Shown here: piece by piece, positions 8,327 through 26,423 of the stretch | How positions within the stretch are numbered: the stretch's first letter is position 1 | Layout: each line of letters begins with the position of its first letter | DNA from: a virus | Virus record (IMG/VR): IMGVR_UViG_2788500025_000001 | Span: 100,163 to 141,282 of that record | DNA: 41,120 nt | Strand: one strand, 5' to 3' | Position numbers and translations under genes: made by a program | Notes under the pieces: model-generated | Seen by the model: only the letters and a program-made list of their open reading frames with translations | Database searches by the model: none | Told to the model about the DNA's origin: nothing

Positions 8327-10117
8327 GTGGCTGCCAACCTCGTCCAACTCGTTGCTCGGTACTTGAAGCAGGCTGACCTGAACCCCGCGCTGGGGCATCC
8401 GGGTGGCTCTTGCTACCTCCAACGACGTGTCCGTGAGACGGTTCGGAACCAGAAGGTCCAAAACTACCTGATGCGGCAGTACCAGGACGGCCAGAAGTGG
8501 AAACGTAAGGAAGAGGAGGCCATCTACAAGGACGACTACTCCATCGGAAAGGTTGGGACTTCCTTCCCTGAGATCCTGCTCAGAAGCCACGCACAGCACC
8601 GCATGGACTTGCGCGGGGTCACCGTCAAGGACATCAAGAAAGCCTTCCACGGCTGGAACCAGGAGATGGCGAACGCCCGTTCCGATGGGTACACCACCGG
8701 GTTCCAACGGAGGCTCATGGACTCCAAGGGGTCTCCTGGCGGCACCTGGTTCGATGCGAAGAACGGCTTGAGGTTGTCCCTGAGGCTTCTCAGGGAAGGC
8801 GTGGTCCGCAAAGGCAAGCGGCAGATCCCCACGTTCAAGGTGCGTGTTGAGACTGCTGTGTGGCCTGGATTGAGGACCCCCGACGTGGTTCCCGAGTCCC
8901 AGTGTTCGCACGCGGCAGGGCTGCCCGAGCCAGAGTGGTCTCGTGAGTACCCGGAGCATGGCCTGGACCGCATTCTGCCGAAGCGTGTTGCTGCAAGATA
9001 CGCGGCGCTCCGACAAGACCCCATCCCCGGCTACCAGACCTATGTGTCCCAGAAGTCCTGGGAGGGTCAATCCAATGATGCTGGGGACACGAACCCCACG
9101 GCACTTCCTCTCCCTGGATCCGCTACTCCTGGAGGGGCAGGCCGGGTGATCCCGCAGTTTTCCTACAACGGCCCTGGCCCGGACTCGGACATCAAGCCCC
9201 GGACACTGGGACTGCCCGGCGAGCAGTACGGGAACCCGTCGAACAACACCTACCAGACAGTGGACCGCAGGATCATCGAGAGCAGCGAGGCTGACTCCGA
9301 GGGTGATCTCGACGAGCCGATGGACAAGCAGGCGTACCGCCCGAAGTGGCGGCCTGGCAAGTACCAACGCAAGAGCCGTGGGCGCACGAAGCACAAGCGC
9401 CAGATGTACTACCGCCGAAACAAGGCGAAGAACAAGATGAAGGCGAAGCGGTGGCGGGTACGAAACTCGCGGAAGCCTGCCTACAAGCAGTGGCAAAAGA
9501 GGAGGCGCAGCATGAACCGCAAGCGCAGAGTGGCGAGTACGTTGCGGGTGGTGAATGCCTACATGCAGCGCATGGGGTCAGTGTTGACTGTCCCGGACAT
9601 CGCGTTCCAGATCGGACCTGAGATGCTGGGCGGCTACGTCCACTCTGTCTCCCCCATGAGCGGGATGGTGACCATCGAGTTGGACGAGACGAACGTGAGC
9701 CAGTTGGACTCGTTGCCGGTCGAGTTGTTTCTCCGCATGGCTGTTTTCTCGTCCGACGAGGACATCGACGCCTTCTTCAACCTGGTGGACGTGGAGATCG
9801 GACCCGAAGCCTACGAAGACCTTGACGAGAGCCTGGTGCGTGAGTGCGCCCAGCGGTACGACCGTGATCCCGACTCGGATTCCTTCAAGGAGGACTGCTT
9901 CGGTGTGTCGGGTGAGTACGACCTGGGCTCCATGGGCGCGGACCAGATGGAGTCCGTCGTCAAGATGGTCCTGGACGGCTACATGCAGAGCGGCGATGCC
10001 AGGGACTTCACGATGGGCCTGGACGGTGACGAGAGGTCCCAGAAAGACGCCGACAACCCCGAAATCCCCGAAGACTACGACCCCGGTCTGTACTACGGTG
10101 AGGTCAAGCGTGGCTGA
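8327..10117 (+). CDS. Modular protein (596 aa): DUF4258/RelE-like segment, Pro/Gly linker, very basic segment, acidic C-domain; candidate internal head protein
   Basis: GTG start with SD GGAG; SHAQHRMDLRGVTVKDI motif; Arg/Lys-rich block at about 9335-9530; RVAxRY-like motifs at segment borders. Confidence 0.7.
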   Translation: MAANLVQLVARYLKQADLNPALGHPGGSCYLQRRVRETVRNQKVQNYLMRQYQDGQKWKRKEEEAIYKDDYSIGKVGTSFPEILLRSHAQHRMDLRGVTVKDIKKAFHGWNQEMANARSDGYTTGFQRRLMDSKGSPGGTWFDAKNGLRLSLRLLREGVVRKGKRQIPTFKVRVETAVWPGLRTPDVVPESQCSHAAGLPEPEWSREYPEHGLDRILPKRVAARYAALRQDPIPGYQTYVSQKSWEGQSNDAGDTNPTALPLPGSATPGGAGRVIPQFSYNGPGPDSDIKPRTLGLPGEQYGNPSNNTYQTVDRRIIESSEADSEGDLDEPMDKQAYRPKWRPGKYQRKSRGRTKHKRQMYYRRNKAKNKMKAKRWRVRNSRKPAYKQWQKRRRSMNRKRRVASTLRVVNAYMQRMGSVLTVPDIAFQIGPEMLGGYVHSVSPMSGMVTIELDETNVSQLDSLPVELFLRMAVFSSDEDIDAFFNLVDVEIGPEAYEDLDESLVRECAQRYDRDPDSDSFKEDCFGVSGEYDLGSMGADQMESVVKMVLDGYMQSGDARDFTMGLDGDERSQKDADNPEIPEDYDPGLYYGEVKRG

Positions 10118-11216
10118 TGAGGCCCCCTCGGCAACCCGCGTGGCTGCCTTGTTTCTGGCCTACGGGAGAGGTGACTTCAGACCACCGTCTCAACCGGGAG
10201 GTCAGAACAACCGTCCCCAACGACAGCAGATACCTGAGTTGCGGAAGAAGCGGCAGAAGGAGCATCGTCGGAACAGGGCCAGGGACAACCGTGCCGCCAG
10301 GAAGCGATACCACGCTATCTACAAACGCAGACCGCAGATGAAGAAGCGGCAGGTGCTGTACCGGAAGAACCCTAACAAGTACAACCGCAAGGGTCCTCGC
10401 AGGTACGAACGCCCCGACGCCAAGAGGGTCATGGCTCGGTTTCTGGAGGCCGGGGCGGTGATGTTGTACGACCAGCAGAACCCGGCCAACAACGAGATCA
10501 AGAACCCAGGCAAGGACGTCAACTACCGTGCTGTGGGGCCAACTACCTGGACCATGTCTCCTGATGAGCGGGGCGGGGTCGAGCCTGGCGCTGGGATCAA
10601 CGACCAGACTAAGGACGCACCGCCCGCTTCGTCGAGGGTGATCCCCGACCAGATGAAGCAGACGCTCCAGGACAACCTCACCTACGTCCGGGCCTCCCGT
10701 ACCGCAGCCGCCAAGATCGATGAGATCATGGGCAAGTGCGGGCCGTTGATCGTTCAGCGGTCTGGGTCCATTCAGTTTCGTCGCAAGAGGATCCTCCCGA
10801 AGCATGGGATGTTGATCTACGAGGTCCAGGGCTCAGTGGGTGGTGTTTCAGACGGCAAGACCTACACAGTCAGGATCAAGGCCGACCGCCGCGACAAGCG
10901 CGTCAAGGCGTTGGCGAAGATGCCCGTCAAGGTGTCCTGCTCGTGCCCCTACTTCCGTTGGCAGGGTCCTGAGCACTGGGCGAAGACCAACGGCTATCTC
11001 TATGGCAGACCTGTGGGCACAGCCTCAAAGCCGGTCATCAAGGATCCGAAGGGCAAGCATTGGGTGTGCAAGCATGTCTATGCCATCCTCAACGCGAAGA
11101 AGCGGCTGCGCTTTGCGAGCGAGGGAGGCACTCTTGACCCAATCGACACGCTTGACCTCAGCCCGTTGTCTGACCCCGTGCGTGTGGCGTACCGCTACGC
11201 CAGGAAGACCTCGTGA
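10110..11216 (+). CDS. Modular protein (368 aa): basic segment plus SWIM-type zinc finger
   Basis: GTG 10110 with SD GAGGT overlaps the previous stop (track start 9822 is an unlikely extension); VSCSCPYF...WVCKHVYAIL fits CxC...CxH. Confidence 0.75.
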   Translation: MADEAPSATRVAALFLAYGRGDFRPPSQPGGQNNRPQRQQIPELRKKRQKEHRRNRARDNRAARKRYHAIYKRRPQMKKRQVLYRKNPNKYNRKGPRRYERPDAKRVMARFLEAGAVMLYDQQNPANNEIKNPGKDVNYRAVGPTTWTMSPDERGGVEPGAGINDQTKDAPPASSRVIPDQMKQTLQDNLTYVRASRTAAAKIDEIMGKCGPLIVQRSGSIQFRRKRILPKHGMLIYEVQGSVGGVSDGKTYTVRIKADRRDKRVKALAKMPVKVSCSCPYFRWQGPEHWAKTNGYLYGRPVGTASKPVIKDPKGKHWVCKHVYAILNAKKRLRFASEGGTLDPIDTLDLSPLSDPVRVAYRYARKTS

Positions 11217-11219
11217 CCT

Positions 11220-11920: not shown

Positions 11921-11959
11921 ACTGTCTCCCTGGTGGGGTTTCACTCACCAACAGGGTTT

Positions 11960-12386: not shown

Positions 12387-12394
12387 CGCCCCTC

Positions 12395-13000: not shown

Positions 13001-13852
13001 ATGGCAGCAGAAATCCGCAGCGAGGTGATTGCTCCCGTCGTCAAAGCGGCGGTTGACAACGCGAGTCGGAATGACCTCGCCGTCAATGATGTCGTGCAAC
13101 TCACTGCCATCGGTGGAGGCACCACCTTCCAGTGGACGTTGGTGTTCGTCCCCGAAGGCAGCACCGCAGTCTTGACCCCAGCAGCCGCAGCGACGACGGC
13201 TGGTCCGGCCACATTCACCGTGGACAAGGTTGGACCGTACCTGGTTCGCCTGGTGGTGGATGCTGGCCTGGCGACCGAAAGCACGCAGTACGTTCGGCTC
13301 CGGGCGTTGACCACGACCCTGGGTTTGCACCTGGTCGCCGCAGGTGAGCGCCGGGACAGCAGCGGCGTGATCCCGGTCGATGTGGACATCGAAGGTTGGG
13401 CGAACGAACAGAACGCCAATCTGCTTGCCCTGGAAAACTCCAGCACATCGCGGGACTACCACATCAAGTGGTTGGGGACTCTCAACACTGCCGGAAGCAC
13501 CCCAGCCACCGCTGTCACCGGGGAGAAGCAGGCAGACAACACAGTCTACTACCGGGGCTGGTGTCCAGACGCCGCCACCCTACTGGGAGTCACGGTCTAC
13601 ATGGGAAGCCTCAACACTCAAGGCAACTACAGCCTCGACATCACCAACGTCGCCACGGCGGCCAGTTGCTTGAATGCGGTCGAAGACATGAACGCCCTGG
13701 TGGCCTCAACAGTCACAGACGTTTCGCTCACAGGGGTTCCCGCAGACCTCTCATTCGCCTCCAACGGTGTCTGGGAGATCACCCTTACGTCCGACGACGC
13801 CGGGTTCGACGGGGCTGAGGTCTACATCAACTTGCGCTTCGGGGTGTCCTGA
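13001..13852 (+). CDS. Short virion appendage protein: PKD/Ig-like N-terminal anchor plus small beta-sandwich
   Basis: N-terminal ~145 aa is paralogous to that of the next gene (PEGSTAV, TFTVD..GPYL.RL, VRLRALT, LVAAGER, GWA.EQN.NL). Confidence 0.7.
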   Translation: MAAEIRSEVIAPVVKAAVDNASRNDLAVNDVVQLTAIGGGTTFQWTLVFVPEGSTAVLTPAAAATTAGPATFTVDKVGPYLVRLVVDAGLATESTQYVRLRALTTTLGLHLVAAGERRDSSGVIPVDVDIEGWANEQNANLLALENSSTSRDYHIKWLGTLNTAGSTPATAVTGEKQADNTVYYRGWCPDAATLLGVTVYMGSLNTQGNYSLDITNVATAASCLNAVEDMNALVASTVTDVSLTGVPADLSFASNGVWEITLTSDDAGFDGAEVYINLRFGVS

Positions 13853-16800
13853 TGGCTATTGCAGAAATCCGAAGTCTCCGAAACGGCGTTGATCCCGAAG
13901 ATGGGGTGAGCCGTGATGATCTCGTCATCGGTGACGTAGTCGAAGTCCAGTCCATCAACACAGGGATCCAGTACGCCTGGAGTATCGCCTTCAAGCCCGA
14001 AGGCTCGACGGCAGTCTTCTCTACGACGGGGACGGAGCAGGCGGTATCTCAGAACCCCGGCACGTTCACTGTGGACGTGGACGGGCCGTACTTGATCCGG
14101 CTCGCATTCATGGATGCGACGGGAACCACCGAGCAGTTTGTCCGGCTCCGGGCGCTCACGGCGTTCGGTGATCTCAAGTTGGTCGCTGCTGGGGAACGCT
14201 ACGACACAATGAGTGTCCCCGTGGACCTTGCCTTCGACGGGTGGGCGGACGAGCAAAACTTCAACCTCAACACGCTCCTGAGCCTGGTGAAGACAACGAC
14301 CACCTCCGGGCGAGTGGTTTACGTTGACCCCGACGCAGGGGACTACACCACCATCCAGGCGGCCATCGGCTACGCGGTGAGTCAGGGGCCTACCTCTGCC
14401 CAGCAGTGGGTCGTCCTGGTCCGCCCCGGCACTTACACGGAAGACCTGACCTTTGCCCCCTACGTCCATGTCTTTGGCTGGCCAGGCGGGCGTGAGACCG
14501 AGATCGTGAAGGTGCGGAATGCCACCAACGCGGGGCACACCATCAACCTTCCGGGTGCGGGAGAGAATGTCGCACTGGCTGACATTTCCTTTCAGCAGCC
14601 CATCACATCCCCCAACGCCGCGTTCATCCAGACGGGTGCGGGGGCCGTTCGCGTGTTTCGTTGTACGCTGGAAGCACAGGGGAACACAGGCGAGGTGTGG
14701 TCTACTCAGGGGCCGACGTACTTCACGGAGTGCATCGTCAACGGAAACGGGGTCAACCCCACGGACTATGCCCTCCGCACGACGAGCCTTCTGGTCCTCA
14801 ACCATTCATTCGTGAACGGGATGTCCTGTGTCCTCGCAGACACCGGCACCGTCTATGCGAAGGACACCCGCTTCACCCCTACCGGCACCTACGCGATCAA
14901 CACCAACGCCTCCCTTGTTCGCCTTCAATGGTGTCGGGTCAGTGGTCTGATTGCGGCCAACCCCAGTGGGGCAGGGGCTGGGGGAGACCTGACCGTCGAG
15001 GCTGAGTGGTCTACTCTCCAGGACATCACCATCGACGGCAACGCGGTGGGAGGGACGGCCCAGATTCTGCTCGGCTCGGCTTCGCACGGCACTGTGACTC
15101 CCATCAACGGGGCCACGGTCGCAGCGACGGTTCCGTCAGACACCAACTTCTACGACAACACGACGACTGGCCTGACTGCCGAGAATGTGCAGGCGGCTCT
15201 CGATGAGATCTACGCCTACGCGGAGGCTGTCCGCACCCTTGATGACGCCTATGATGGGGGATTGCCCGGCAGCGGCTCCGGTCGCACCATCGTCGCTGAC
15301 GCGGGTGCCGTCCAGATCACAGACGGACCCGCACCTTCGGACCCGCCTCCACCCAGCAACACGAACGGCAACCTGAACGTAGTCGGCGCAGTGAATCTCG
15401 GAGCCATCGACAAGCCTGAGATCAACCTCAACCCCAACCCCTTCGACAACGGCCCCATGGTCCTTTTGGGCCATGAGGTCTGGGCCAACGACGCACCCTA
15501 CGGCGGCACGGCCTGGATCATGGGCAACGCTACGGGCCTTCCACAGGACCACAACTACAACCTGGTCCTCGGAACCATGTCCGCCCAGCAGGGCACCACT
15601 ACCGGGCGTGTGATCCTGATGGGTGGGGACGCGGTGTCTGCCGTGGACGCTGCAACCGTGTTCATCCAGGGCGGTACGGCGCAGAACGGAGGTGGCGGTG
15701 CCGCAGGGGACATCTACCTGGCCCCCGGACAGTCCGCCGCCGGTGCAGCCGGTCAGGTGATCCTCGTGGACCAGTCCACAGGCACAGGTGCGACCCTCAC
15801 TGCTGCTGGGGCCTTTGTGAACCCCATGGTCGCAAGCACCGTGACCTTCGGGACCAATGAGGGGGCTATCCAAGTCACCTTCGCAGGCGGTGAGAACCTG
15901 GCTGCGGTACAAGCACTGTTCGATGCCACGGGCGTCGTCACGGCAGCCGGTGATCCCATCGTCCTGACCACAGCGGCGAAGGGGCCAACCGCAGAGATCT
16001 ACTTCCTGGGCGAGAGCGTGGCTGGGGCAGACACCGCCCTCGGCGGGTTCAACGGACAGGCCATGGTGCCTGGAACCTGGCCCAGCGCGATGGGCATCGC
16101 ACTCACTGGACCCGACGAGATCACGTTCGGAGTGGGTGACCCCAACCCGATGATCTACGATTCCGGCACCGGCAAACTCACCGTGCCTGGTCTGATTGAC
16201 CCCACGGGAATGATCTTCGACGAGGCAGTCAAGCCTCCGACCGGCGCAAACAAGGGTGCCTTCTTCGTGTCGAACACCACGGGTGGCGGCCTGACCCGGA
16301 ACAAGCCCTACTACGTCGATGAAAACGGCGTGACCACAGAACTCGGCGGTGGCGGCGGTGGCGGTGGCGATGTGGTGGGTCCTGGTGCGGCTACCGACGA
16401 GGCTCTTGTTCGCTTCGACGGGGCTACGGGCAAGTTGGTTCAGAACAGCAACGCTTTGCTGGATGACATAGGCAATCTCACCCTTGCCGCTGACCTTTCA
16501 GTAATCAAAACTGTTACCGGGTCTCCCGCTGGGGATGCTTTCGTTCGGCTGGGTCGTGTGGATGATACGTCGGACTGCTCTATCCTCTTCCAATCCGGTG
16601 GTGGGACGCAGTGGGTGACGGGTCTTCGGGCTTCAAGCGATGACTACACTATCAGTTCAAACTCCGGTAGTAACCAGCGTCTGAAGGTTGACACCACGGG
16701 AGTGGTGACGTTCAACGACGCCTTTTCCTTCCCCAGCGCGGACGGAGGGGCCAACCAGGTCCTCCAGACAGATGGTGCCGGGAGCATCACATGGGCGGCT

Positions 16801-18219
16801 GTAGGGACGGGCGATGTCACCGGACCTGGTGCCTCCACCGACAATGCTCTGGTCCGCTTCAACCTTGCCACGGGCAAGGTGCTCCAGAACAGCAACGCCA
16901 TCCTGGAGGATTCGGGAGACCTCACCCTGGCAGGCAGCCTGACAGTGGATCCCCCTATCGCTGGGAATGATGCCTACGGCATCTTCGACCGGGTAGACAA
17001 CACGTCGTCCTCGGCCATCATCCACATGACCGGCGCTGCGCCTGACTGGATCACAGGAACGACGGTAGGGAACAGCAACTACACGATTGCCGATGGCGGC
17101 GGCACAGAACGCCTCCGGGTGACCCCGACAGGCGACGTCAGAATCAACAATGCGTTCACGCTGCCCAGCACGGACGGTATCGCCAACCAGGTGCTCCAGA
17201 CGGACGGTGCTGGAGGGGTTACCTGGGCCTCTCCCTCATCTTCGGGATGGCCCACCTCTACCGGCACCGATGCCTTGGGCATCGACTACGAAATGGCTGA
17301 GTTGACCGTAGGCAACGCCTACATCGTGCTCCAGCCTGGCGCTGCTGGACCCATCCAGACCTCCGTGTCTGACGGGGCTATTGCTGGAGGCAGCAACCGA
17401 GCACCCTACGCGACGGACTGGCAGAGATTCAGGACCGCTGCCACTCAAGTTGCTTCTGGATCGTACTCCGTCATCGGAGGCGGGCGGCAGAACGAGGCCA
17501 GCGGTACAGATGCCACGGTCAGTGGCGGCCAAGCCAACCAGGCCAACGGCGACCAGAGCACGGTCAGTGGTGGTCAGTTGAATGATGCGGACGCCATCCA
17601 CAGCACCATCACTGGAGGACTCCAGAACGAGATCCTCGCAGCAGCAACCTACGCAACCATCCCCGGAGGCCGTGAGAACGCCCTCCTGGGTCAAGGCAGC
17701 GTGGCTATGGGCGTCCGTTCCCGCACCTACAGGACCGCCCAGATGGTTCATGCGAGTGGTTCCTTCGCTGGTGCTGCACCCTTCGGTGATGCCCAGCACG
17801 GACGCATGGTGTTGCGGACGACCACGAACAATAACCTGGTTGAAATGAACTCCAGCCTGGGCCTCGGAGGAGTGATCACGGCCAGCGACTTCCTCACCCT
17901 TGAGAACAACTCAGGCCACTTCTTTACCTTGCATGTGATCGCACGGGCCGCAGCCACTTCCCCATCCCCCCAAGAGGATGCGTGGTGGTCGGTGGAGGGG
18001 TGCATCATCAAAGAGAACAACAACGCCTCAACCGTCTTGATTGGTCCCGCCCTTCCGACAGCGCCCGATGGAACCCGAGGGCTCAACTCGGTGAACTGGA
18101 GGCTTGATGTAGCCGCCGACACCACGAACGGTAGGCTCAGAATCGCAGGGGACAGCGCCGGTTTCGTTGGTGATGTTCGCTGGGTAGCCACTCTCCAGAC
18201 TACACAGGTGGGCCTCTGA
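13852..18219 (+). CDS. Long mosaic tail fibre/spike (1455 aa)
   Basis: Shared anchor; pectin-lyase-like start (GDYTTIQAAI...VRPGTYTE); NVQAALDEI; poly-Gly hinge; 148-aa tandem duplication; YadA-head-like SxxxGGxxN repeats. Confidence 0.8.
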   Translation: MAIAEIRSLRNGVDPEDGVSRDDLVIGDVVEVQSINTGIQYAWSIAFKPEGSTAVFSTTGTEQAVSQNPGTFTVDVDGPYLIRLAFMDATGTTEQFVRLRALTAFGDLKLVAAGERYDTMSVPVDLAFDGWADEQNFNLNTLLSLVKTTTTSGRVVYVDPDAGDYTTIQAAIGYAVSQGPTSAQQWVVLVRPGTYTEDLTFAPYVHVFGWPGGRETEIVKVRNATNAGHTINLPGAGENVALADISFQQPITSPNAAFIQTGAGAVRVFRCTLEAQGNTGEVWSTQGPTYFTECIVNGNGVNPTDYALRTTSLLVLNHSFVNGMSCVLADTGTVYAKDTRFTPTGTYAINTNASLVRLQWCRVSGLIAANPSGAGAGGDLTVEAEWSTLQDITIDGNAVGGTAQILLGSASHGTVTPINGATVAATVPSDTNFYDNTTTGLTAENVQAALDEIYAYAEAVRTLDDAYDGGLPGSGSGRTIVADAGAVQITDGPAPSDPPPPSNTNGNLNVVGAVNLGAIDKPEINLNPNPFDNGPMVLLGHEVWANDAPYGGTAWIMGNATGLPQDHNYNLVLGTMSAQQGTTTGRVILMGGDAVSAVDAATVFIQGGTAQNGGGGAAGDIYLAPGQSAAGAAGQVILVDQSTGTGATLTAAGAFVNPMVASTVTFGTNEGAIQVTFAGGENLAAVQALFDATGVVTAAGDPIVLTTAAKGPTAEIYFLGESVAGADTALGGFNGQAMVPGTWPSAMGIALTGPDEITFGVGDPNPMIYDSGTGKLTVPGLIDPTGMIFDEAVKPPTGANKGAFFVSNTTGGGLTRNKPYYVDENGVTTELGGGGGGGGDVVGPGAATDEALVRFDGATGKLVQNSNALLDDIGNLTLAADLSVIKTVTGSPAGDAFVRLGRVDDTSDCSILFQSGGGTQWVTGLRASSDDYTISSNSGSNQRLKVDTTGVVTFNDAFSFPSADGGANQVLQTDGAGSITWAAVGTGDVTGPGASTDNALVRFNLATGKVLQNSNAILEDSGDLTLAGSLTVDPPIAGNDAYGIFDRVDNTSSSAIIHMTGAAPDWITGTTVGNSNYTIADGGGTERLRVTPTGDVRINNAFTLPSTDGIANQVLQTDGAGGVTWASPSSSGWPTSTGTDALGIDYEMAELTVGNAYIVLQPGAAGPIQTSVSDGAIAGGSNRAPYATDWQRFRTAATQVASGSYSVIGGGRQNEASGTDATVSGGQANQANGDQSTVSGGQLNDADAIHSTITGGLQNEILAAATYATIPGGRENALLGQGSVAMGVRSRTYRTAQMVHASGSFAGAAPFGDAQHGRMVLRTTTNNNLVEMNSSLGLGGVITASDFLTLENNSGHFFTLHVIARAAATSPSPQEDAWWSVEGCIIKENNNASTVLIGPALPTAPDGTRGLNSVNWRLDVAADTTNGRLRIAGDSAGFVGDVRWVATLQTTQVGL
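16366..17232 (+). repeat. Diverged tandem duplication (444-bp period) within the fibre gene
   Basis: GDVxGPGA.TD.ALVRF..ATGK..QNSNA.L.D.G.LTLA ... F..PS.DG.ANQVLQTDGAG..TWA, starting at 16366 and 16810. Confidence 0.85.
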
Positions 18220-21200
18220 TGCCAGTCTATCTCCCCGGTCTAACCTTCGGGGGCCTCGGATATGGTGGGGCATCCTATGGGTACTCCCCCTACGGTTCGG
18301 GAATCTTCCCTCGCCTGCCGGTCCCGGTAGACGGGGGGTACGGCGGCGCTCCTTACGGCCTCGCCTCCTACGGCTCCGTAGACATCACGCCGCCGAGGGT
18401 GACCGGAGCCACGTCCCTTGACGGCTACCGGGTCGAGATATTCTTCAACGAGGACATGGCCAACAACGCGGCGTTGGTTGATCCGGCCAACTACACCTTC
18501 GCAGAGACGGTCAGTGGAGCCTCGACGTTCGGTGCAGCACTCACGTCGGTGTCAGTGGCGGTGGGAACGCCTTCGGGACTCGGCTACTCCTCCATCATCG
18601 TGACCCACACAGGGTCTACGTTGGGGGGTCAGTACACCGTCACCGTCAACGGGCCGACAGACGTGGCGGGGAACCCGGTCGGACCTCCTCCGACGAACAG
18701 CGCGGTTTTCTACGCTCTCGGTGACACCACGACCGCAGAGGCAACTCTCCCCTCGCCAGATGACGGGCGCACGGTCCTTCTGGACTTCCGTTCGGGAACG
18801 GTAGGCAGCCAACTCCAGCCGATGCTCCCTGAGGCGGACTTCAGCCCAGGCGTTGACAGCACCACGTCCTATGGGATCACGACGACCTACCCGGTGACCC
18901 CAACGCTCGGCTCGGCCACGCAAGATGCCGTGACACCTTCGCGGGTTGCACTCGACGTGCATCCAATGACCAGCGCGGTCTACAACCTCACGGTCGGACC
19001 CAGTGAGGCGTTTGCCTACTCGGGATCCCTGCTCCCGGACGATGATCCAAACTTCACCGGAGCCGAGATTGGCACCGGCTCCAGCGCCGCGAGCAATACC
19101 GGCCTGGTCATGTCGAAGGCGGCAGGGAACCAGTACGGCTGGTCCTTTGGTGACTCCACGGGCCGCATGGCTCCCGGCACCACCTACCGAGCCGAGGTTC
19201 GGTACGACTTGTCCTCGACGACCATCACTCCGGCGGTGTTCAACTCCACGTTGGCGACCTTCTCGGTGTCGGACGGGGCGATCCAGGTAGACATCGCGCT
19301 GGCTGATGTGGCTGGGGTCAAGGTCCTCCAGATCGTTTCGGGGGCCTACACGTCCACGGCGCTCGCCAACTGGGACACCACTACCGCCCCTCACCGCCTC
19401 ACCTTGATCCGCAACCAGAAGGGCGACTTCTACACGGTCGTGTTCGACGGGGTTCCCGTCAACACCTTCCCTGTGGCTTCGGCTACTGGCGCAGCGGTCT
19501 ACGGCGCAGGCACGGCCTTCGTTTTCTCGACCACCCACGAAGTCACCCTGTTCCGCCTGTCGAACATGGGCTTGTCGTCCAGCCTGACCCTGTTCACATC
19601 GGCGTGGAACTTCATCCACGGCCTTCCGGTGTCGTTCACGGGGTCTTCCGTCCTCACCAACGACAAGATCACCACTCGCTATGGACCCCTCGTCCGAGGT
19701 TGGGGTGACGCCACCCCGGCTACGAAGCAAGACGTCACGGTTCGGCTCGATGGTGGTGAGATCGACATCGCTGGGGTCAATCCCTACGTCGGAGAAATCT
19801 ACCCGACCTTGCCCATCCCGCTCGCTGCTGCCGGGACGTTCACGGTGGACGTGGACTACATCTGGTTCGCCAACCCGGCGATGGAGATGGCGGGCCTCAA
19901 CACCCGTGGCTTGACCCTCTCAACCTGGGACCGGGCTGTCGGTCACGACGCAGAATCCGTAGCCCCCCTCCCTACAGGCAGCACAGGGGCGACACGGACC
20001 AACCGTTTTCCGATGGGTGTGGCTCTCGGCCCTTACCAGCGCCCCTCTCCGAAGCGCATCGGACACAAGTACATCGGTTGGCAGAAGGACTACAGTGCCC
20101 TCACCAACACACCCACCACGCTGCTTTTGAATCAGGACCCTCATGCCATCTCGGTGGGGGGCCTAAGCGCAGATGCTTTGTCCGGCGGTGGGGTCTTTGA
20201 TGGGGTTGGTCCCCCTCCGCAAGCCCCGACTCCGTGGATCCTGGACGGCAGCGATACGGGTTCGGCGGGGCAGGCCGTCTACACGTTGGTGGACGCCTCT
20301 TCCGGCCCCTACGGCATCGGCACCGCTGCTTTCTACAAGAGGTTTGAGGACCTCGCCCTGGCTACCCATGTCACGGAGAGCGCACGGTTCCGCATCGCGG
20401 AGCACGTCGCGGATGGGGTCTTCACCGGAGTGGGTCTCGGCCTCCACGATGGTGCCCACCTGGCCTTTGTGGGCGCTCTGGTCGTAGATGGGGTCTCGCA
20501 TGTAGGCATCCTGGCTGATGCCACCATCCCCCATCTGGAGGAAGGTTGGATCATCGGGCCTTCCGCCCTGGCGACCGGGGTTACTCAATCAGTAATCCGC
20601 ATCGCCTACGAGGACTTCCCCACGGGCCTCGGAGCAGGATCACGGTTCCGCATCGCGCAGGGCAACCAGGCCGGGGTGTACACCATCGCCGACTGCGGTG
20701 TTGATCTGGACGTTGACGGCAACGTCCTCCTCACACTCGACAGCCCACTACCCGCCGACATTCAGGGCCTCGGTGACCTGACCTTCGCCATTCTCTTTGA
20801 GGTCAAGTGGGTAGACGAGTTCATCTCGCTGCGGCTCTCCAGTGTCTTCCCCGCCGGAAGCATGAACGTCTTCCTGGGTGGGGCTTTGTCAGGCACCGTG
20901 GGGGAGATTCCTGAAGTCGCCCCCTTCCCCGCCCAGACTTCACTGTTGCTCCCAGCCTCCGAAAAGGGAGTCGTCTTCTGGGGTAGCCTCAGTCGCCGGG
21001 CAACCTCGACCTCGATCTGGGACCTGGCGCAGTACTCCTCGACCCCACAACTGTTGACCCAGACGGCGCAGGGCATCACGGCGCTGACTGAGATGAATGT
21101 GATCCCACAGGAGGATCCCAATGACCCCTGGTTCGTCGTCGGTGGGTTCGGCACGGGGATCATCGACGCGACCGGAGATCAACTGCTCCTACGGTCCACC

Positions 21201-23660
21201 TCGGACGAAAGCCCGATTGACACGCAGTTCTACTACGAGCGCGTCGAGCCGTTCATCAACCCGAAGGTCCGGGTCGATTCCGAGGCTACATTCAGTCTGG
21301 ACTCAGCGGTCCTGGGCGTGGGGTCTGCTGCTCTGCGCGTGCGGGACACGGAACGGGAAGCCGTTGTCGAGACCCTCTGGATCGCCACCGATAACCTGGG
21401 ACAGCACGCCCTCATCCCCCGTCGCCCACAAGCCTCGCTTTCAGGTCTGCGTTCGCCACCGGATGCTGGGTGGACACCAACCTCTCCATCCCCGCCACCT
21501 GCCAGTGTTTTCGTCCGAGGACAGACCCTGGAGTTGACCAAAACCCGTGATGATGAAGGGGCCTGGACAAAGGGCGCTCAGGAGGCTGCCGCCGCTGAGG
21601 ACATTGGGGTGATCCTCAATGCTCGCTTGTCCGTTCAAGAGGCTGCCGTGGGGCTAAAGGGCATCGGCATCGGCTGGGGGGCGGAGGGACGCCTCCCCTC
21701 ATCCAACTTTGAGAGGACCATCTGGGTCTCTCTGGACCAAACGCTCGCCACGAAGGAGGTGGTCCTCCTCGACCGGCTTGAAAACAAAAGAGCCGCCTTC
21801 CCGTTTGACTGGTCAGACGGGAAGTATCACGACTACCGGGTGCTCTGTGATCCTGTCGCAGACCTCGTGGTCGTGGTCGTGGATGATGTAGTGCTCGGAA
21901 GCGTGGCCTTTTCGGACTTCTCGTCCGCGATGGTCAGCGACTTCGGCACCTACCTGACAGGCAAGATCGGGTACGTCGGCAAAGGGTCCTGTAAAGCAAC
22001 ACTCGACTCCCTTTCTGTTGTCCCTCTACGAACCGAAGCCCTCCCCTTCCTACCGGCGCTCATCAAGACCTTCGGCGTCCGTCTGCGTCTGGGGGTTGAT
22101 GGGGACATCGACTCCTACCGCCTTCCTCGGACAGACGGGACGGAGGTTCCCAACAGCCACCCCACGGCCACCTTCAAGGAGATGGACTGGACGGCTCAGT
22201 GCCGGGTGCGGATGTTCCTTGACCCCACCTGGGGCGTCTCGGTCTACCGCCCGGACCTACCTCTCCCCCCAACGGCCACAGAGGACTTCGCCACTGAGAC
22301 CACGGACCCGTCAGCGGCCTGGATCAACGTCGAGTACCGGGACCTGCCTACCTATAGCGTCCATCACGGCTCGGTCTCCTTCGGTGCGATCAACGAGGAA
22401 GCCATCAGCCAGCAACGGTGGGACTCGGTGCGCTACCGCGTCCGGGGCGGGCCAGAAGGCTTCGGCATCGCGCCACAAGGCATGGTGCTCAACCGTGCCT
22501 TCACGCTGACCAGCGGCGAGTACAACCTCGACGTCACACCCGAGACAGCGACCATCACCTCTCGGACACCCTTCCTGGTCTATGTCCCCGACAGCGACAT
22601 CTACGCGGATCGTGTGTTCGTGGTTCAGGTGGACGGCGCGGTGATCCCACCAGCCGACTACACCTTTGACAAGACCACACAGAACCTCCAGTTCACTTCG
22701 TTGGCCCCGCTCCCCTCAAGCCAGCACGAAGTCACGGTCACATTCGCGGTCGGCAAGCCGGTCACTCAGACCTATCTGTGCGGGCAGCCCATCGACGAGA
22801 CTGTCACGGTCCTCAACGAGGGCACGCCTCCCATCCCGACAGACCTGGACCAGCCTGCTGACCGAGAAATCGAGAACGGTGGGATCATCAACGACCCCGC
22901 AGATGTGCTCGACGAAGCCGAGAGCCTGGTGCTCAATGATCCCTACCGGGTCGTCACCTTCACGGACACTGCCGAGAGCATCTACGCGGACCTCCAGTTT
23001 TGCACGACGGAGGACGGGGATTCCGTTCACATCACACCCGTCTGCGACGGACCTGGACCTGGTCTGGGCCTCTCGCATCTTGAGGTAGACGGCCACTTCA
23101 CGACCAACGCCTTCACGGTCCCAGAAGGTCCTGGAGGACCCTGGAAGGGGTCGCCCGCCATCAAGGGTTCCGCCACCCACTTCAACCCCGCTACGGTGCT
23201 CACAGCGAGCGGTGGGAACATTCTGGGAGGCAACCTCGGTCCAGGCACCGCGATTCTGTACCCCAACCAACGGGGACCTTCCGGCAAGCCGCCCGAAGGC
23301 GGGATGGGGATCAACCAGGACTTCGCCCTCCGTCTGGAGGACGTGACCCCACGCACGGAAGACCTGAGCATCGACACCACGATGGGGGACAACGTGCCCC
23401 CGACCTTTGCGGACCCGGTGCCCAGCAACCCGGACGGTGTCCCTACGCCAAACGGCAACGGGGCAGTCGCCTACAAGATGGTGGACTACGCCACGGTTAC
23501 AGCATCACGGCTCGGTCCCTGGGGCGGCTTGACTGCACTGGAGACCCGGTCCCTGCTGGCCGGGGGCGCACCCCTCAACGGCTCCGAGTTCATCCTTGAA
23601 GGAGGCACCCAGATCCCTGGCCCGGTTGTGACCGAGGGCTACATCCGTGCGGCCAACTGA
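18219..23660 (+). CDS. Very large virion structural protein (1813 aa), Ig-like/lectin-like domains; possible baseplate component
   Basis: TGATG coupling; N-terminal GYGGxxYGxxxYG repeats; Ig-like DITPPRVTGATS...EIFFNEDM; beta-rich composition. Confidence 0.7.
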   Translation: MPVYLPGLTFGGLGYGGASYGYSPYGSGIFPRLPVPVDGGYGGAPYGLASYGSVDITPPRVTGATSLDGYRVEIFFNEDMANNAALVDPANYTFAETVSGASTFGAALTSVSVAVGTPSGLGYSSIIVTHTGSTLGGQYTVTVNGPTDVAGNPVGPPPTNSAVFYALGDTTTAEATLPSPDDGRTVLLDFRSGTVGSQLQPMLPEADFSPGVDSTTSYGITTTYPVTPTLGSATQDAVTPSRVALDVHPMTSAVYNLTVGPSEAFAYSGSLLPDDDPNFTGAEIGTGSSAASNTGLVMSKAAGNQYGWSFGDSTGRMAPGTTYRAEVRYDLSSTTITPAVFNSTLATFSVSDGAIQVDIALADVAGVKVLQIVSGAYTSTALANWDTTTAPHRLTLIRNQKGDFYTVVFDGVPVNTFPVASATGAAVYGAGTAFVFSTTHEVTLFRLSNMGLSSSLTLFTSAWNFIHGLPVSFTGSSVLTNDKITTRYGPLVRGWGDATPATKQDVTVRLDGGEIDIAGVNPYVGEIYPTLPIPLAAAGTFTVDVDYIWFANPAMEMAGLNTRGLTLSTWDRAVGHDAESVAPLPTGSTGATRTNRFPMGVALGPYQRPSPKRIGHKYIGWQKDYSALTNTPTTLLLNQDPHAISVGGLSADALSGGGVFDGVGPPPQAPTPWILDGSDTGSAGQAVYTLVDASSGPYGIGTAAFYKRFEDLALATHVTESARFRIAEHVADGVFTGVGLGLHDGAHLAFVGALVVDGVSHVGILADATIPHLEEGWIIGPSALATGVTQSVIRIAYEDFPTGLGAGSRFRIAQGNQAGVYTIADCGVDLDVDGNVLLTLDSPLPADIQGLGDLTFAILFEVKWVDEFISLRLSSVFPAGSMNVFLGGALSGTVGEIPEVAPFPAQTSLLLPASEKGVVFWGSLSRRATSTSIWDLAQYSSTPQLLTQTAQGITALTEMNVIPQEDPNDPWFVVGGFGTGIIDATGDQLLLRSTSDESPIDTQFYYERVEPFINPKVRVDSEATFSLDSAVLGVGSAALRVRDTEREAVVETLWIATDNLGQHALIPRRPQASLSGLRSPPDAGWTPTSPSPPPASVFVRGQTLELTKTRDDEGAWTKGAQEAAAAEDIGVILNARLSVQEAAVGLKGIGIGWGAEGRLPSSNFERTIWVSLDQTLATKEVVLLDRLENKRAAFPFDWSDGKYHDYRVLCDPVADLVVVVVDDVVLGSVAFSDFSSAMVSDFGTYLTGKIGYVGKGSCKATLDSLSVVPLRTEALPFLPALIKTFGVRLRLGVDGDIDSYRLPRTDGTEVPNSHPTATFKEMDWTAQCRVRMFLDPTWGVSVYRPDLPLPPTATEDFATETTDPSAAWINVEYRDLPTYSVHHGSVSFGAINEEAISQQRWDSVRYRVRGGPEGFGIAPQGMVLNRAFTLTSGEYNLDVTPETATITSRTPFLVYVPDSDIYADRVFVVQVDGAVIPPADYTFDKTTQNLQFTSLAPLPSSQHEVTVTFAVGKPVTQTYLCGQPIDETVTVLNEGTPPIPTDLDQPADREIENGGIINDPADVLDEAESLVLNDPYRVVTFTDTAESIYADLQFCTTEDGDSVHITPVCDGPGPGLGLSHLEVDGHFTTNAFTVPEGPGGPWKGSPAIKGSATHFNPATVLTASGGNILGGNLGPGTAILYPNQRGPSGKPPEGGMGINQDFALRLEDVTPRTEDLSIDTTMGDNVPPTFADPVPSNPDGVPTPNGNGAVAYKMVDYATVTASRLGPWGGLTALETRSLLAGGAPLNGSEFILEGGTQIPGPVVTEGYIRAAN

Positions 23661-23675
23661 CAATACCGCCTCTAT
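23661..23675 (+). promoter_or_regulatory. Putative late promoter motif (variant)
   Basis: CAATACCGCCTCTAT about 36 nt before ATG 23711. Confidence 0.55.
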
Positions 23676-23710
23676 CTCCGTGATCCTGTGAAGAGAGCGG
23701 AGACTTTCAC

Positions 23711-24556
23711 ATGGCCTGGGTAGAACAGTATTGGTGGAAGATCCGCTGCCGGGTATCGACCCTATGGGGGCGCTGCATAGAGGTCGTGATTACCTTTTTC
23801 AACTTCATCCGCACAGACAAGGTAGGGCTCGTCGCCCCTACGATTCTGTTCATGGCCATCAGCCATGGATTCTTCTGGTCCACAGTCGTATTCCTCAATG
23901 ACTGGACGACCTCGTGGTATGCCGAGCGGCACCCGTCTCTCACCACGTCGATCAGCGTGTGCATTGAAAGCCTGCCTCAGGGCGTCTGCGCCAGGCTCGT
24001 GGAGCATCTGACCCTGGTGCAGAGTCGGGCAGAGCACCACTACGAGATCAGCCGGACCTTCCAGTCCTACCAGTTCGGGTTCCTGAGCACATCCTTTTGG
24101 GCGGGCACCCTGCTGGCTCTGGGCATCTTCACGGTGGTCCGCAAGGGTTTCGATGACCTCGGATCATGGGGCAAAGGAATGCTGATGGGCTTGCTATGTG
24201 CGGCGGCTTTCTTTGGCGGCTTCCCGGCGCTCGTGAGCATCGACGACAACATCAAGGACAACCTCGACGGCTACAACGCCTACGACGGCATCGCCGCCGA
24301 GATCAGGACGTACATGCGGACAGGTGAGAGTGTCACCGGCAACCATGTGGACGGGGCCTCGTTCCTCCACAAGATCGACATGATGATCTCGGACCTCGAT
24401 GCTCCCCGGATCCAACTCGATGCGACCCAGATGGACCTCGGCAAGAGCAGATTTTTGGAGTTGAGCCAGGAGATGGAGAGTGGGGTCGCCGCCCCCGACA
24501 CGCCTCGCGTTATTTCGCCTATTCCTCCTGGAGAGGTAGAAGAGAGTACTCCATGA
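23711..24556 (+). CDS. Membrane protein (281 aa, about 3 TM; SLATT-like 2TM-plus-helix topology in the C-half)
   Basis: SD GGAG; hydrophobic segments at about aa 38-62, 120-142 and 154-177, followed by a helical soluble domain. Confidence 0.65.
   Translation: MAWVEQYWWKIRCRVSTLWGRCIEVVITFFNFIRTDKVGLVAPTILFMAISHGFFWSTVVFLNDWTTSWYAERHPSLTTSISVCIESLPQGVCARLVEHLTLVQSRAEHHYEISRTFQSYQFGFLSTSFWAGTLLALGIFTVVRKGFDDLGSWGKGMLMGLLCAAAFFGGFPALVSIDDNIKDNLDGYNAYDGIAAEIRTYMRTGESVTGNHVDGASFLHKIDMMISDLDAPRIQLDATQMDLGKSRFLELSQEMESGVAAPDTPRVISPIPPGEVEESTP
24508..24522 (+). promoter_or_regulatory. Putative late promoter motif inside the 3' end of the upstream CDS
   Basis: CGTTATTTCGCCTAT about 31 nt before ATG 24553. 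Confidence 0.6.
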
Positions 24557-24684
24557 AAAACGTGATCCCTTTCCCCACCCGTGCCACCGTCTTCACAGAC
24601 GACGACGTGTGCCGGGTGTTCGGCACTCACCTGCCCGTTGAGATCACCGACGAGGACTCGACCGCATTCTGGAGCGCATCATGA
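24553..24684 (+). CDS. Small hypothetical protein (43 aa)
   Basis: Not in track. ATGA overlaps at both ends; MKNVIPFPTRATVFTDDDVCRVFGTHLPVEITDEDSTAFWSAS. Confidence 0.6.
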   Translation: MKNVIPFPTRATVFTDDDVCRVFGTHLPVEITDEDSTAFWSAS

Positions 24685-25970
24685 CCATCTCTACTCGACA
24701 GATCCGTGAGATCCTTGCCGCCGAAGGACTCGTGGCTGCCTTTCCTTCCTTTCAGGTGACCCCCAAGCCGCGAAGCCCTGAGGTCAATGACTTCTACCAA
24801 AAGGCCGCACGCAACTGGAGCCGCATGGGCGTAGTGCCATGGACGGTTCGGTTCGACGGTGACAAGGCCGAGATTCGCTTCAAGTCTCGGACGGCAGAGG
24901 CATCTTACGACTTCTCGGCCCTCATTGGCACAGGCGACAGAGGGGCTTTCCTGACCCTCAGCAGCAACCCCCGCAAGGAGTACGCAAACCCCCGGCAGGC
25001 AGCGCAGGCGATCAACGGCAGGATCATCCTTGAGAAGGAGTTGGCCTCAGGCCGGATCGCCGCTCGGTACGCCGCCCGCAATCAGGGTGCGGCCAACGCG
25101 GCCTACCTCGGCAGCCTTGATGACCGGATGACGAACAAGATCCTCACAGGCATCGCCAAGCACTACGGTGTCTCGACCCAGGCGATCTACAAGGAACTGA
25201 TCGACCGGGACGCGGAGGCTCTGTACGAGTACATCACCGATGGCTCCCGGATGCGGGTGTACGAGGACATGAAGAAGGGGCGGTACGCCAGCACCCGCAG
25301 GGTTGCTCACCGTCCGCACTTCGTGACCCCGAAGGAACTCCGCGACGGCCATGCGTTCATGACCTACAAGATCGACGCCGGGAAGAACAACAGCAAGTTT
25401 TACGAAGGCAAGATCACACCAGCCGACGACGGCTCGTGGTCTTTCCTGAAGCGTTGGGGTGCTCTGACTGACAAGGGTGCCCGCCACTCGCGGGTGGACG
25501 GTGCGAAGTACGACAAGCACGGACTCACTGAGGCCCAGGCACAGCGGATGCTCGACAAGGAGCGGAAGAAGCGCCTCGGACCCCGTGGCTACACCGACGC
25601 CATGAAGTCGCGCCCTGTGGGCCAGTACCCGGTCGGCCTCCAGCGCGACGTCGGCTTCGGTTGGGGCACACAGGAGATCACCAACTGTGTCCCGGCGCTG
25701 CGGAACATGTCGGACCTCATCGTCACCGCTCTGGCAGAAGTCCAGCAGGATGATCCCGGCGACCTTCTCCGTGCCCTTGAGGGCCTCGCCGTACTCGTGG
25801 GTGACCTTCCCACGAGCAGCATGGCGAAGGAGATCGCGAAGAAGATGCGGCCTCCCGTCCAGCGCATGAAGAAAAACCCACGCTTCATCAGTGATCCCAA
25901 CCGCACGACGAAGGAGTTGATGACCCTCAAGCGGTACATCGACCGCCAGACCAAAGAGTGCAACGTCTAA
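24681..25970 (+). CDS. Modular protein (429 aa) with WGR-like domain
   Basis: KIDAGKNNSKFYEG...SFLKRWGAL...AQRMLDKERKKRLGPRGY (about 25356-25597) matches the WGR pattern; segments are separated by RIAARYAA and RYASTRRVA. Confidence 0.75.
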   Translation: MTISTRQIREILAAEGLVAAFPSFQVTPKPRSPEVNDFYQKAARNWSRMGVVPWTVRFDGDKAEIRFKSRTAEASYDFSALIGTGDRGAFLTLSSNPRKEYANPRQAAQAINGRIILEKELASGRIAARYAARNQGAANAAYLGSLDDRMTNKILTGIAKHYGVSTQAIYKELIDRDAEALYEYITDGSRMRVYEDMKKGRYASTRRVAHRPHFVTPKELRDGHAFMTYKIDAGKNNSKFYEGKITPADDGSWSFLKRWGALTDKGARHSRVDGAKYDKHGLTEAQAQRMLDKERKKRLGPRGYTDAMKSRPVGQYPVGLQRDVGFGWGTQEITNCVPALRNMSDLIVTALAEVQQDDPGDLLRALEGLAVLVGDLPTSSMAKEIAKKMRPPVQRMKKNPRFISDPNRTTKELMTLKRYIDRQTKECNV

Positions 25971-25979
25971 GGAGACCCC

Positions 25980-26423
25980 ATGAAGAACCTACGCACAATC
26001 ATGGCCGAAGAAGGCTTCAAGATCGCCCGACGCCCCTACCGTTCGGAGAGGGATGACATTGACGAGCAGTACGGCGACGTTCCGAGGAACGAGCGGGGCG
26101 ATCTGCTTCCCGCGATGGGTGATCTCAAGAAGGTCAAGATGGTCGTGATCGGCCCCAGGGGCCGCTATGCTGCCCCGGAACTCAATCGGGAAGGTAAGCG
26201 GATCTTCAAGGAGATCACGGGGAGTGACTACGACTCCTACGGAGGGAAGCGCGGCACCCCGCGACACCACCCCGCATTGGTGTGGATCGCCCAGACCTAC
26301 CCCGGCTTGTTCGCAGGTGGGTTTGAGTTGGTGCCTGTCCCTGGTGGGGTCTACAAGATCCGCGAGTACGACGGATCAGAATGGCTTGAGACCCCGCAGT
26401 CCGTCGAGTGGACCAAGATCTGA
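25980..26423 (+). CDS. Phage hypothetical protein (147 aa)
   Basis: SD AAGGAG; RHHPALV...YKIREYDGSEW motif; N-terminus resembles that of the 429-aa protein. Confidence 0.75.
   Translation: MKNLRTIMAEEGFKIARRPYRSERDDIDEQYGDVPRNERGDLLPAMGDLKKVKMVVIGPRGRYAAPELNREGKRIFKEITGSDYDSYGGKRGTPRHHPALVWIAQTYPGLFAGGFELVPVPGGVYKIREYDGSEWLETPQSVEWTKI

Follow-up and report, generated by a model that had tools for sequence, protein, structure and literature searches.

The window analyzed here, the last 41 kb (41,120 nucleotides) of the 141,282-base phage contig IMGVR_UViG_2788500025_000001 (C1), encodes three predicted late polyproteins of 596, 368, and 429 amino acids (aa) in which short signals mark the joints between modules. 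Two signals are present. One is a peptide tag, RVAxRY (tag A), from a set of four or more tags that can replace one another, three of them in this contig; the other is a separate [K/R]-x-A site, and several peptides that the first-pass annotation had counted as one recurring R-V-A-x-R-[Y/F] motif belong to the latter. We propose that the two form a load-and-cut code that resembles the capsid-targeting sequence (CTS) of phage T4 and would employ new tags, a predicted alanine-specific head protease, and shuffled polyproteins. Judging from sequences and structure models, we put the probability of this interpretation at about 0.68. Within it, cleavage after alanine by the head protease appears highly probable and tag-driven loading into the head reasonably probable, and for delivery of the modules into the host we see even odds.

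In the proposed pathway, tagged precursors would be made late and would dock into the assembling prohead via the tag helix, the coat inner face, the scaffold, or the portal being the candidate docking partners. The head protease would then cut the precursors after alanine, alongside the scaffold; the freed modules would stay with the DNA, and some may be delivered to the host. R-V-A within tag A fits the cut motif, and this tag may dock first and be cut later.

Four tags and a three-residue site at module borders

Genes on the contig and seven relatives were called with a simple codon-usage caller that misplaced some starts, and three genomes were read in part (G004, 400 of 402 kb; G006, 180 of 222 kb; phage G, 480 of 497 kb). 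The tags have the consensus sequences RVAxRY (A), LRxILAxEGL (B), DRxxLIRLASxLPxGSxERxAIL (C), and LRSxLIRLAHxNP (D), and tag A was scored with a profile trained on five relatives (threshold, 12 bits). The polyproteins and their signals are listed below; model confidence is the predicted local distance difference test (pLDDT).

8327..10117, + strand: 596-aa polyprotein with a DUF4258-like (weak), a low-complexity, a basic, and an acidic module
8345..8374, + strand: degenerate tag A QLVARYL, then K-Q-A; profile score, -1.7 bits; the first module begins after it
8984..9001, + strand: internal tag A RVAARY at residue 220, 25.9 bits; fusion joint and homology breakpoint
9326..9334, + strand: K-Q-A site before the basic module; KEA or KQA precedes the matching segment in G001 028 and G002 500
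9527..9565, + strand: R-V-A site with the degenerate helix RVVNAYM, ahead of the acidic module; fails the tag profile
10110..11216, + strand: 368-aa polyprotein (GTG start at 10110) with tag, basic helical module, tag, flexible module, R-T-A joint, SWIM-type zinc module, and tag
10137..10154, + strand: N-terminal tag A RVAALF at residue 10, 17.9 bits; helix 8-19 flanked by low-confidence segments
10425..10442, + strand: internal tag A RVMARF at residue 106, 14.5 bits; helix 104-113
10698..10706, + strand: R-T-A joint before the SWIM module; insertion hotspot
11181..11198, + strand: C-terminal tag A RVAYRY at residue 358, 15.2 bits; helix 356-367 after a low-confidence linker
24681..25970, + strand: 429-aa polyprotein with tag B, module 1, tag A, helical module 2, R-V-A site, and WGR plus helical module 3
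24702..24731, + strand: N-terminal tag B IREILAAEGL; helix 5-14
25053..25073, + strand: tag A RIAARY at residue 125, 14.4 bits, with R-Y-A before module 2; pLDDT <50 at 117-131
25281..25307, + strand: R-Y-A and R-V-A sites; the WGR module begins after RVA (HRP...); pLDDT <50 at 201-207
25980..26423, + strand: 147-aa protein without assigned function; tag B at 25989-26018 and K-I-A at 26019-26027

By alignment, tags A, B, C, and D exchange on one and the same WGR module. Most homologues of the 429-aa protein fall into classes covering 100%, ~69%, or ~52% of its length, and in the shorter ones a tag sits directly on module 2 or 3. This leading tag is B in P0011 and P0013, C in P0014 and P0016, A in P0040, P0049, and P0080, and D in P0078. 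Loose patterns applied to the N-terminal 60 aa of 83 WGR homologues found B in 33, D in 15, C in 5, A in 5, mixed tags in 2, and none in 23; P0002 to P0009 carry tag B and K-T-A in place of RIAARY. Directly before the WGR module start, [KR]x[AS] with a free middle residue is present in 75 of 77 scorable homologues (6 of the 83 without a locatable start and 7 non-WGR matches were dropped). Evolution has in effect performed its own swap experiment, with four tags on one module and the same three-residue site following.

The SWIM module of the 368-aa protein, a confident part of the AlphaFold model (residues 201-340, pLDDT mostly 85-97), shows the same site in another setting. All insertions of at least 45 aa among 112 SWIM homologues (27/27) fall at residues 187-199, the RTA joint, and [KR]x[AS] directly precedes the module in 84 of 96 homologues, compared with 10.7 at random places (17 of 113 homologues were dropped). 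Both counts bear out the earlier suggestion that [K/R]-x-A lies ahead of new segments. Tag A is present in 71 of the 113 homologues, several of which start with a tag at the RVMARF position.

The 596-aa protein aligns with two successive G001 genes, with 027 over residues 6-246 and with 028 over residues 220-594, the second alignment beginning at RVAARY in both proteins; as judged from these alignments, the protein is a fusion, made at the tag, of the front part of 027 and the rear part of 028. Its first module begins after KVA, KTA, or RQA in G001 (two copies) and G002, and LVARYL aligns with a degenerate tag followed by K-x-A in G001. At the place of the R-V-A site and RVVNAYM, G001 028 carries RTA...RTA. 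More generally, internal A tags coincide with homology breakpoints in 26 of 49 cases versus 10.4 expected (12 of 61 were dropped), a count obtained with the tags unmasked, which may pull alignment ends toward them. Module shuffling between relatives, foreseen in the first-pass annotation along with the placement of the motif at module borders, is seen in the tag swaps, in the single insertion joint, and in a related contig (run X5), where module 1 of the 429-aa protein is replaced and the fibre genes are colinear. The X5 contig also lacks the 147-aa gene, position 25968 being joined to 26444.

All peptides quoted in the first-pass annotation are present where it placed them, and five of its nine motif sites pass the tag A profile. 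The other four fail, namely, LVARYL (-1.7 bits), RRVASTL (-2.7), RVVNAY (-5.9), and RVAHR (5.9), and by comparison with homologues these are degenerate tags or [K/R]-x-A sites: RVA-STL and RVA-HRP are assigned to the latter because homologues have RTA, KTA, or KVA in these positions. The annotation missed tag B, which opens the 429-aa and 147-aa proteins; its pattern LRxILAxEG[LMF] has 8 matches in the contig, all N-terminal, versus 0 in 300 shuffles. Tag C is present in 6 copies in the contig, and tag D, in the form LRSKLIRLAHxNP...LLPLL ending in KEA, KTA, RQA, or RTA, is used by LR745208.

Might the motif arise by chance from the composition of high-GC proteins rich in Arg and Ala, or from an in-frame DNA repeat? 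The contig has ~62% G+C, and loose patterns also find matches in the capsid protein and in two proteins of replication or regulation. However, R[VI]AxR[YF] occurs 5 times in the contig versus 0.10 expected (300 per-protein shuffles; maximum, 2), 19 times versus 0.4 in G001, 11 versus 0.37 in G002, and 3 versus 0.23 in the first 400 kb of LR745208, and no match occurs in Tunturi_5, at 58% G+C, or over the initial 80 kb of phage G. Relaxing the pattern to R[VI][AM]xx[YFW] gives 18 matches in the contig versus 2.7 in its shuffled sequences; this pattern was derived from the first-pass examples, and independent genomes are the fair test. In G001, a de novo word search ranks RVAxR at the top. The tag A profile finds 12 sites of at least 12 bits in the contig versus 0.5 (mean of 2 shuffles), its training relatives including orthologues of some of the tested sites. 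All DNA copies of tag A differ (12, 36, and 28 copies in three genomes), also at synonymous positions, and therefore selection acts on the peptide; in tag C, 58% of same-residue codon pairs differ. Enrichment in relatives, profile counts, and synonymous differences together refute chance or a DNA repeat as the origin of the strict motif, and we regard either as extremely improbable.

In the AlphaFold models of the 429-aa and 368-aa proteins, the tags are modeled as short helices that are flanked by linkers of low confidence and lie apart from the confident modules, although low pLDDT near the tags is partly due to thin alignments. The amphipathic helix predicted earlier was borne out for tag A, with a hydrophobic moment of 0.55 versus 0.36 in shuffled sequences. 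Among 113 A tags, 36 are N-terminal, 61 internal, and 16 C-terminal.

A [KR]xA site follows tag C in 84 of 131 proteins, 49 of them at one fixed offset, versus 18.5 at random (19 of 150 proteins without an N-terminal tag or too short were dropped), and follows tag B in 7 of 10 versus 1.1. For tag A, the site follows in 26 of 95 (versus 13.5) and precedes in 26 of 87 (versus 7.9). Site density per protein is a poor classifier; it is the position of the site that carries the signal.

These numbers also bear on a simpler code in which RVAxRY would be an extended head-protease site, with R-V-A as P3 to P1, and the proteins would enter the head by charge or by binding to core proteins rather than by targeting. 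R-V-A, like the R-L-A of tags C and D, fits [K/R]-x-A. Among the triplets that precede the WGR module, RVA ranks first (21/77), and the scaffold is rich in RLA and RIA. However, tag A takes the place of the other three tags in front of a KVA or KIA that is separate from it (P0040, P0043, P0049 to P0051, P0080, and P0083), tag B needs no internal [K/R]-x-A, and RVM variants lack the alanine. In addition, cutting at the C-terminal A tags would release ~10 residues, and the 35-residue tag C far exceeds the length of a protease site. We consider such a cut-only code unlikely.

Head protease and predicted late expression of the tagged genes

By homology of its capsid protein, portal, and protease, the contig is from a phage G-like large myophage with a gp27-type capsid. 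Terminase, portal, tail sheath, head maturation protease, and an acidic scaffold-like gene, labeled so for its position and composition, are all encoded upstream of the window. Encoded at C1:94462-95334, the capsid protein shares 41% identity with phage G gp27, 50% with its Tunturi_5 counterpart, and 86% with that of LR745208 (485 kb), and PDB entry 6WKK is its sole solved relative (E-value, 8e-71). The portal is 27% identical to that of phage G, and the protease is 39% identical over 110 aa. Relatives in IMG/VR reach 436 kb, and the datasets holding the phage are marine metagenomes, with no RNA dataset among those listed. Moraphages were considered as a name for this group and set aside, as they are distinguished by a family B polymerase marker (PMC12619734; this and the other papers cited by PMC number are represented here by passages of their text). 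Capsid genes of the clade, 81 to 89% identical, occur in metagenome-assembled genomes (MAGs) labeled Actinomycetota, Altiarchaeales, Legionellales, Lysinibacter, and Nitrospirae (L183-L188), and the conflicting labels suggest mis-binned phage contigs.

The capsid protein is unusually conserved. It has 2,062 clusters at an E-value of 1e-20 or better, and the best 120 of these are 87 to 99% identical; in the same relatives, portal identity is 65 to 82% and protease identity 41 to 67%. Such conservation would fit many binding constraints on the shell.

The protease gene (C1:90613-92052) matches the head maturation protease family phrog_18299 (E-value, 9e-13), and its homologues in Tunturi_5 and phage G carry the same annotation. 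H129 and S180 are invariant across 9 homologues from this clade, Tunturi_5, phage G, and I3; a sequence search of the PDB with the protease gave no match. The ratio of observed to expected [KR]xA is 2.3 for the scaffold and its neighbor, 2.0 for the protease, 2.05 for other head proteins, and 1.5 for the portal. Tail (0.82), replication (0.99), and capsid proteins (0.62) show no excess. In scaffolds, KxA and RxA are among the top gapped pairs, and serine is the commonest residue after the site (32/106).

Because this excess is in head and not in tail proteins, the tagged proteins are placed where the head protease acts. This also speaks against the tags addressing another late machine, such as a chaperone, a host protease, or a tail-tube loading ATPase of the kind known from contractile injection systems. 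In favor of such a machine, the predicted late timing common to all tagged genes is not specific to the head; two tail orthologues reach the score of a tag; and T4 propeptides also recruit chaperonins (PMC10052503). We consider this explanation very unlikely.

The late assignment rests on a single-block promoter-like motif, CGGTR-N6-CTAT, which has 31 matches in the contig versus 2.0 in shuffled sequence, mostly 40 to 55 nucleotides (nt) upstream of structural or tagged gene starts. Its place before structural genes leads us to predict a role as late promoter. In the window, the motif positions are 1299 (- strand), 1320, 4211, 6819, 8279, 12946, 23661, 28730, 28908, and 40782. Two sigma-70 region 4 proteins of the contig (C1:49763-50335 and C1:5895-6128) could read it. 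The elements that matter most here are as follows.

8279..8293, + strand: CGGTR-N6-CTAT as predicted late promoter; the 596-aa gene lies 48 nt downstream
13001..23660, + strand: three fibre/baseplate-like genes without a site of at least 12 bits, an internal negative control
23661..23675, + strand: variant motif CAATA-N6-CTAT, found with a loosened pattern only (38 matches versus 7.3 shuffled)

The claim that the late motif heads both operons stands for the first; the second has the variant, two genes upstream of the 429-aa gene. Predicted late units hold all 23 tagged genes and 54 of 121 untagged ones (P = 2e-7), the late class being a loose one of 77 among 144 genes. Among 50 tag-C loci of other contigs, 17 have the motif no more than 120 nt upstream, 0 have it downstream, and 2 have it on the other strand (of 56 loci, 5 from G001 and 1 short locus were dropped); G001 and G002 also show an enrichment of the motif ahead of tagged genes. 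None of 87 replication orthologues is tagged, and 2 of 69 from the tail are, in agreement with the earlier expectation of a late, non-fibre set.

The absence of the motif from fibre and baseplate proteins needs qualification. The three control genes, whose tail role is taken from composition and synteny without a family match, contain one peptide, RIGHKY (20055-20072; residue 613 of the 1,813-aa baseplate-like protein), that scores 11.3 bits; none in the contig reaches 12 bits, and two tail orthologues in relatives pass. The G001 orthologue of the RIGHKY protein exceeds the threshold. RIGHKY is either a false positive or a sign that a tail protein shares the signal.

Several neighboring genes deserve mention. 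The unit of the 429-aa and 147-aa genes is headed by a 281-aa predicted membrane protein (23711-24556) with no family above the cutoff. The product of 4257-4844 has a repetitive Lys/Thr/Ser-rich C-terminal half, histone H1-like by eye; its PHROG match to a tail assembly chaperone spans the low-complexity part and may be spurious. A class I S-adenosylmethionine-dependent methyltransferase (38473-39435) lies amid fibre or baseplate genes. Outside the window, a 1,140-aa SNF2-type helicase (C1:53774-57196) is encoded among the late cargo genes without a tag above threshold, and the product of the gene upstream of it has a ferritin/Dps-like start (phrog_3636).

Candidate cargo and evidence against loading

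Six genomes contain 119 tagged proteins, which form 75 families after tag masking. Tag C alone is found on 1,592 clusters at 50% identity, the best 150 of which comprise 96 families, and 111 of 119 scanned tag-C proteins have no Pfam family. Recognizable cargo domains are topoisomerase IB, CCA/poly(A) polymerase, PAP2, C39 peptidase, HAD, 2H, GNAT, and ART-PolyVal. A 2,475-aa tagged protein of G002 combines 2H, PolyA_pol, Topoisom_I, and GNAT in one predicted late polypeptide, and a 1,247-aa tagged protein of G001 has an ART-PolyVal domain. In the head operons, polyproteins are built around a topoisomerase IB domain (C1:85330-89487 and G002 C1:9266-16693) with PAP2, HAD, 2H, CCA polymerase, and GNAT as exchangeable partners.

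The three window polyproteins have no PHROG or NCBIfam match, and their recognized domains are limited to SWIM and a borderline WGR. Of the module names given earlier, SWIM holds (PF04434; E-value, 3.3e-5, above the Pfam cutoff), whereas WGR is just below the cutoff (E-value, 2e-4). Foldseek links the WGR module to PARP WGR domains with weak E-values, and a whole-chain Foldseek search of the 429-aa and 368-aa models against the PDB gave nothing at an E-value of 0.001 or better. DUF4258 (PF14076) is a weak lead on the 596-aa protein (E-value, 0.2; 12.4 bits versus a gathering score of 25) and on the module copy in G001 (E-value, 0.018), with Atlas matches below its bar; "protamine-like" has no family match, and the 596-aa protein as a whole matches nothing in Pfam, PHROG, or NCBIfam. 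The designation of the modules as injected nucleic-acid effectors is conjectural, as most have no family and the SWIM module is also found in other large phages.

Mycobacteriophage I3 gp102 (L190:11224-15024), which is rich in [K/R]-x-A and adjoins the protease-scaffold fusion gp103, has a Cys/His pattern like that of the window SWIM module by eye, and Tunturi_5 gp336 matches the module weakly. Mimicry of the scaffold by tags C and D was also examined and was not supported: they look alike by eye, the best profile reached 7.2 bits, and 4 of 24 tests gave P <0.05.

Some of the cargo may be structural core material instead of injected effectors. Taken further, all tagged proteins could be prohead core or DNA-organizing material, the tags being assembly or DNA-binding helices and the pieces being degraded or retained with no role in the host. 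Conserved head-operon genes (the g093 and g063 families) are tagged, many modules are very basic, three tag-C proteins bear a fusellovirus VP2 domain, the SWIM module is widespread in large phages, and the cargo is largely without family. However, the enzymes named above fit the host better, whole tagged genes are gained or lost between close relatives, and the scaffold-mimicry test was unconvincing. The core-material explanation is compatible with loading and cutting and differs from our proposal only on delivery; as an account of a part of the cargo it may be correct, and as an account of the whole it has a low probability.

A number of observations weigh against the load-and-cut code. Tags B and C show no amphipathic excess (0.30 versus 0.35 and 0.34 versus 0.39, respectively, in 11-residue windows), and C-terminal A tags are unlike the T4 CTS. 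The site after tag A reaches only about twice the background, with 1 of 500 random draws attaining 26; whole-length tagged proteins have a small [KR]xA excess (733 versus 655); and tag B of the 429-aa protein has no [K/R]-x-A right behind it. The profile finds few A tags in G004 (3 versus 1.0) and none in Tunturi_5, and promoter enrichment is weak or absent in LR745208, G004, and G006. The breadth of the late class, the unmasked breakpoints, and the thin alignments behind low pLDDT add to these points, and the MAG matches carry five unrelated taxon labels.

Relation to known systems and cultured relatives

The T4 prohead protease recognizes a motif ending in Glu. Encapsulins, which have an HK97-fold shell, are loaded through short terminal cargo peptides that are not cut off, and herpesvirus assemblin is a serine protease that cuts after Ala, often before Ser, at sites without a basic P3. 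The proteins described here share with these last two the short terminal tags and, in scaffolds, a predicted Ala cut site most commonly followed by Ser.

The closest precedent for loading is T4, in which a CTS of ~10 residues on internal proteins is combined with the gp21 prohead protease and at least one cargo protein, IPI, is injected; a 2023 review still calls the placement of proteins in the T4 core "mysterious" (PMC9958956). As in T4, a short tag (a removable one in T4) is found on otherwise unrelated proteins, here predicted to be late, a short motif is common to scaffold, protease, and cargo ([K/R]-x-A here, with a 2.0- to 2.3-fold excess in head-core classes), and a prohead serine protease, predicted here, is encoded by the phage beside the scaffold and capsid genes. 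T4 has one N-terminal tag of ~10 residues on a few proteins, whereas here at least four exchangeable tags of ~6 to 35 residues, also internal and C-terminal, mark ~20 to 35 proteins in each of the richer genomes. The predicted cut after alanine, the conserved [K/R]-x-[A/S] triplet at module starts, and the capsid protein, which belongs to the phage G-like family and has no propeptide and no site excess, also differ from T4.

A three-residue head-protease motif is also known from SPN3US and phiKZ. SPN3US gp245 cuts head and ejection proteins at A-X-E, repeated in propeptides; this motif ends in Glu, the cuts strip N-terminal propeptides from nine proteins, and the passages describe neither a shared targeting tag nor module-by-module release from polyproteins (PMC10052503). 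Polyvalent and MuF-fused effectors (Iyer et al. 2017, 2022) are large late proteins of several domains for which packaging and injection have been proposed, and they share ART-PolyVal, 2H, GNAT, and Nudix domains with the proteins considered here (PMC5512222, PMC9503650). MuF or portal fusions are their proposed carriers, their processing is attributed to built-in metallopeptidases, and no short linker code is described in the passages of these papers. Pfam scans of 28 relatives' tagged proteins, the 119 tag-C proteins, and the window proteins matched no MuF, portal fusion, or built-in metallopeptidase.

Phage G, Tunturi_5, and I3 have a homologous capsid protein and head protease, and phage G and Tunturi_5 lack tags A to D at the levels of this contig. 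[K/R]-x-A is dense in the Tunturi_5 scaffold and gp328 and about 2-fold in excess in I3 gp94, gp102, and gp103; in phage G, the per-protein excess is weak (best log10 P, about -2). Both phage G and Tunturi_5 use an N-terminal leader, MKRLxKKA or SRLLKKA, with 8 matches versus 0.34 and 6 versus 0.3, respectively, for a pattern written after the examples. A looser pattern finds the leader on phage G gp13, gp20, gp38, gp56, gp233, gp251, gp284, and others. About 12 phage G proteins (NC_023719.1) have an MKRLxKKA-type start, at 11937, 17765, 28218, 38447, 163172-163849, 178671-179204, 207449, 255160, 255911-256453, 258975, 382868, 383204, and 435497; two leader-bearing proteins belong to the "gp336 multigene family" of PMC12484599. 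In Tunturi_5 (PP885688.1, 225802-230271), a 1,489-aa protein with Nudix, ART-PolyVal, and GNAT domains starts with MAKSRLLKKA and is a cultured example of a leader-bearing polyprotein. Because phage G and Tunturi_5 show this related short leader, the system is testable in culture.

We found no description of the tags in the literature searched, which did not extend to subscription journals and bioRxiv supplements. RVAARY, RVASRY, LIRLAST, and RILASEGL have no occurrences among the papers listed, and no match combines KxA with phage, protease, and capsid. Neither tags nor site are described in the passages from PMC7824862, PMC13282480, PMC8570332, PMC11924767, PMC12474303, PMC12484599, and PMC12619734, and the phage G passages mention no cleavage motif or leader. 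The logic of tagging and loading is known from T4; to this the present analysis adds tag exchange on a single module, a hotspot for insertions, and leaders in cultured phages.

If our interpretation is correct, [K/R]-x-A would be the first predicted cleavage specificity for a phage G-type head protease, and tags and site would provide a search key for packaged cargo across a large phage group (2,062 capsid clusters; 1,592 tag-C clusters). The cargo, mostly without family, would be a pool of candidate anti-defense or takeover proteins, and the joints would reveal a mechanism by which such phages assemble multidomain polyproteins. More tentatively, the whole phage G-like supergroup might combine an Ala-specific head protease with a set of plug-in address helices, unrelated to each other, for which the prohead would offer a single conserved docking site. 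Tags and cut sites could then be universal joints, any domain behind one being packaged, processed, and injected. Should this broader idea hold, the tags would mark well over a thousand unstudied families of early-acting phage proteins and would offer a portable loading signal for very large capsids that is testable in phage G.

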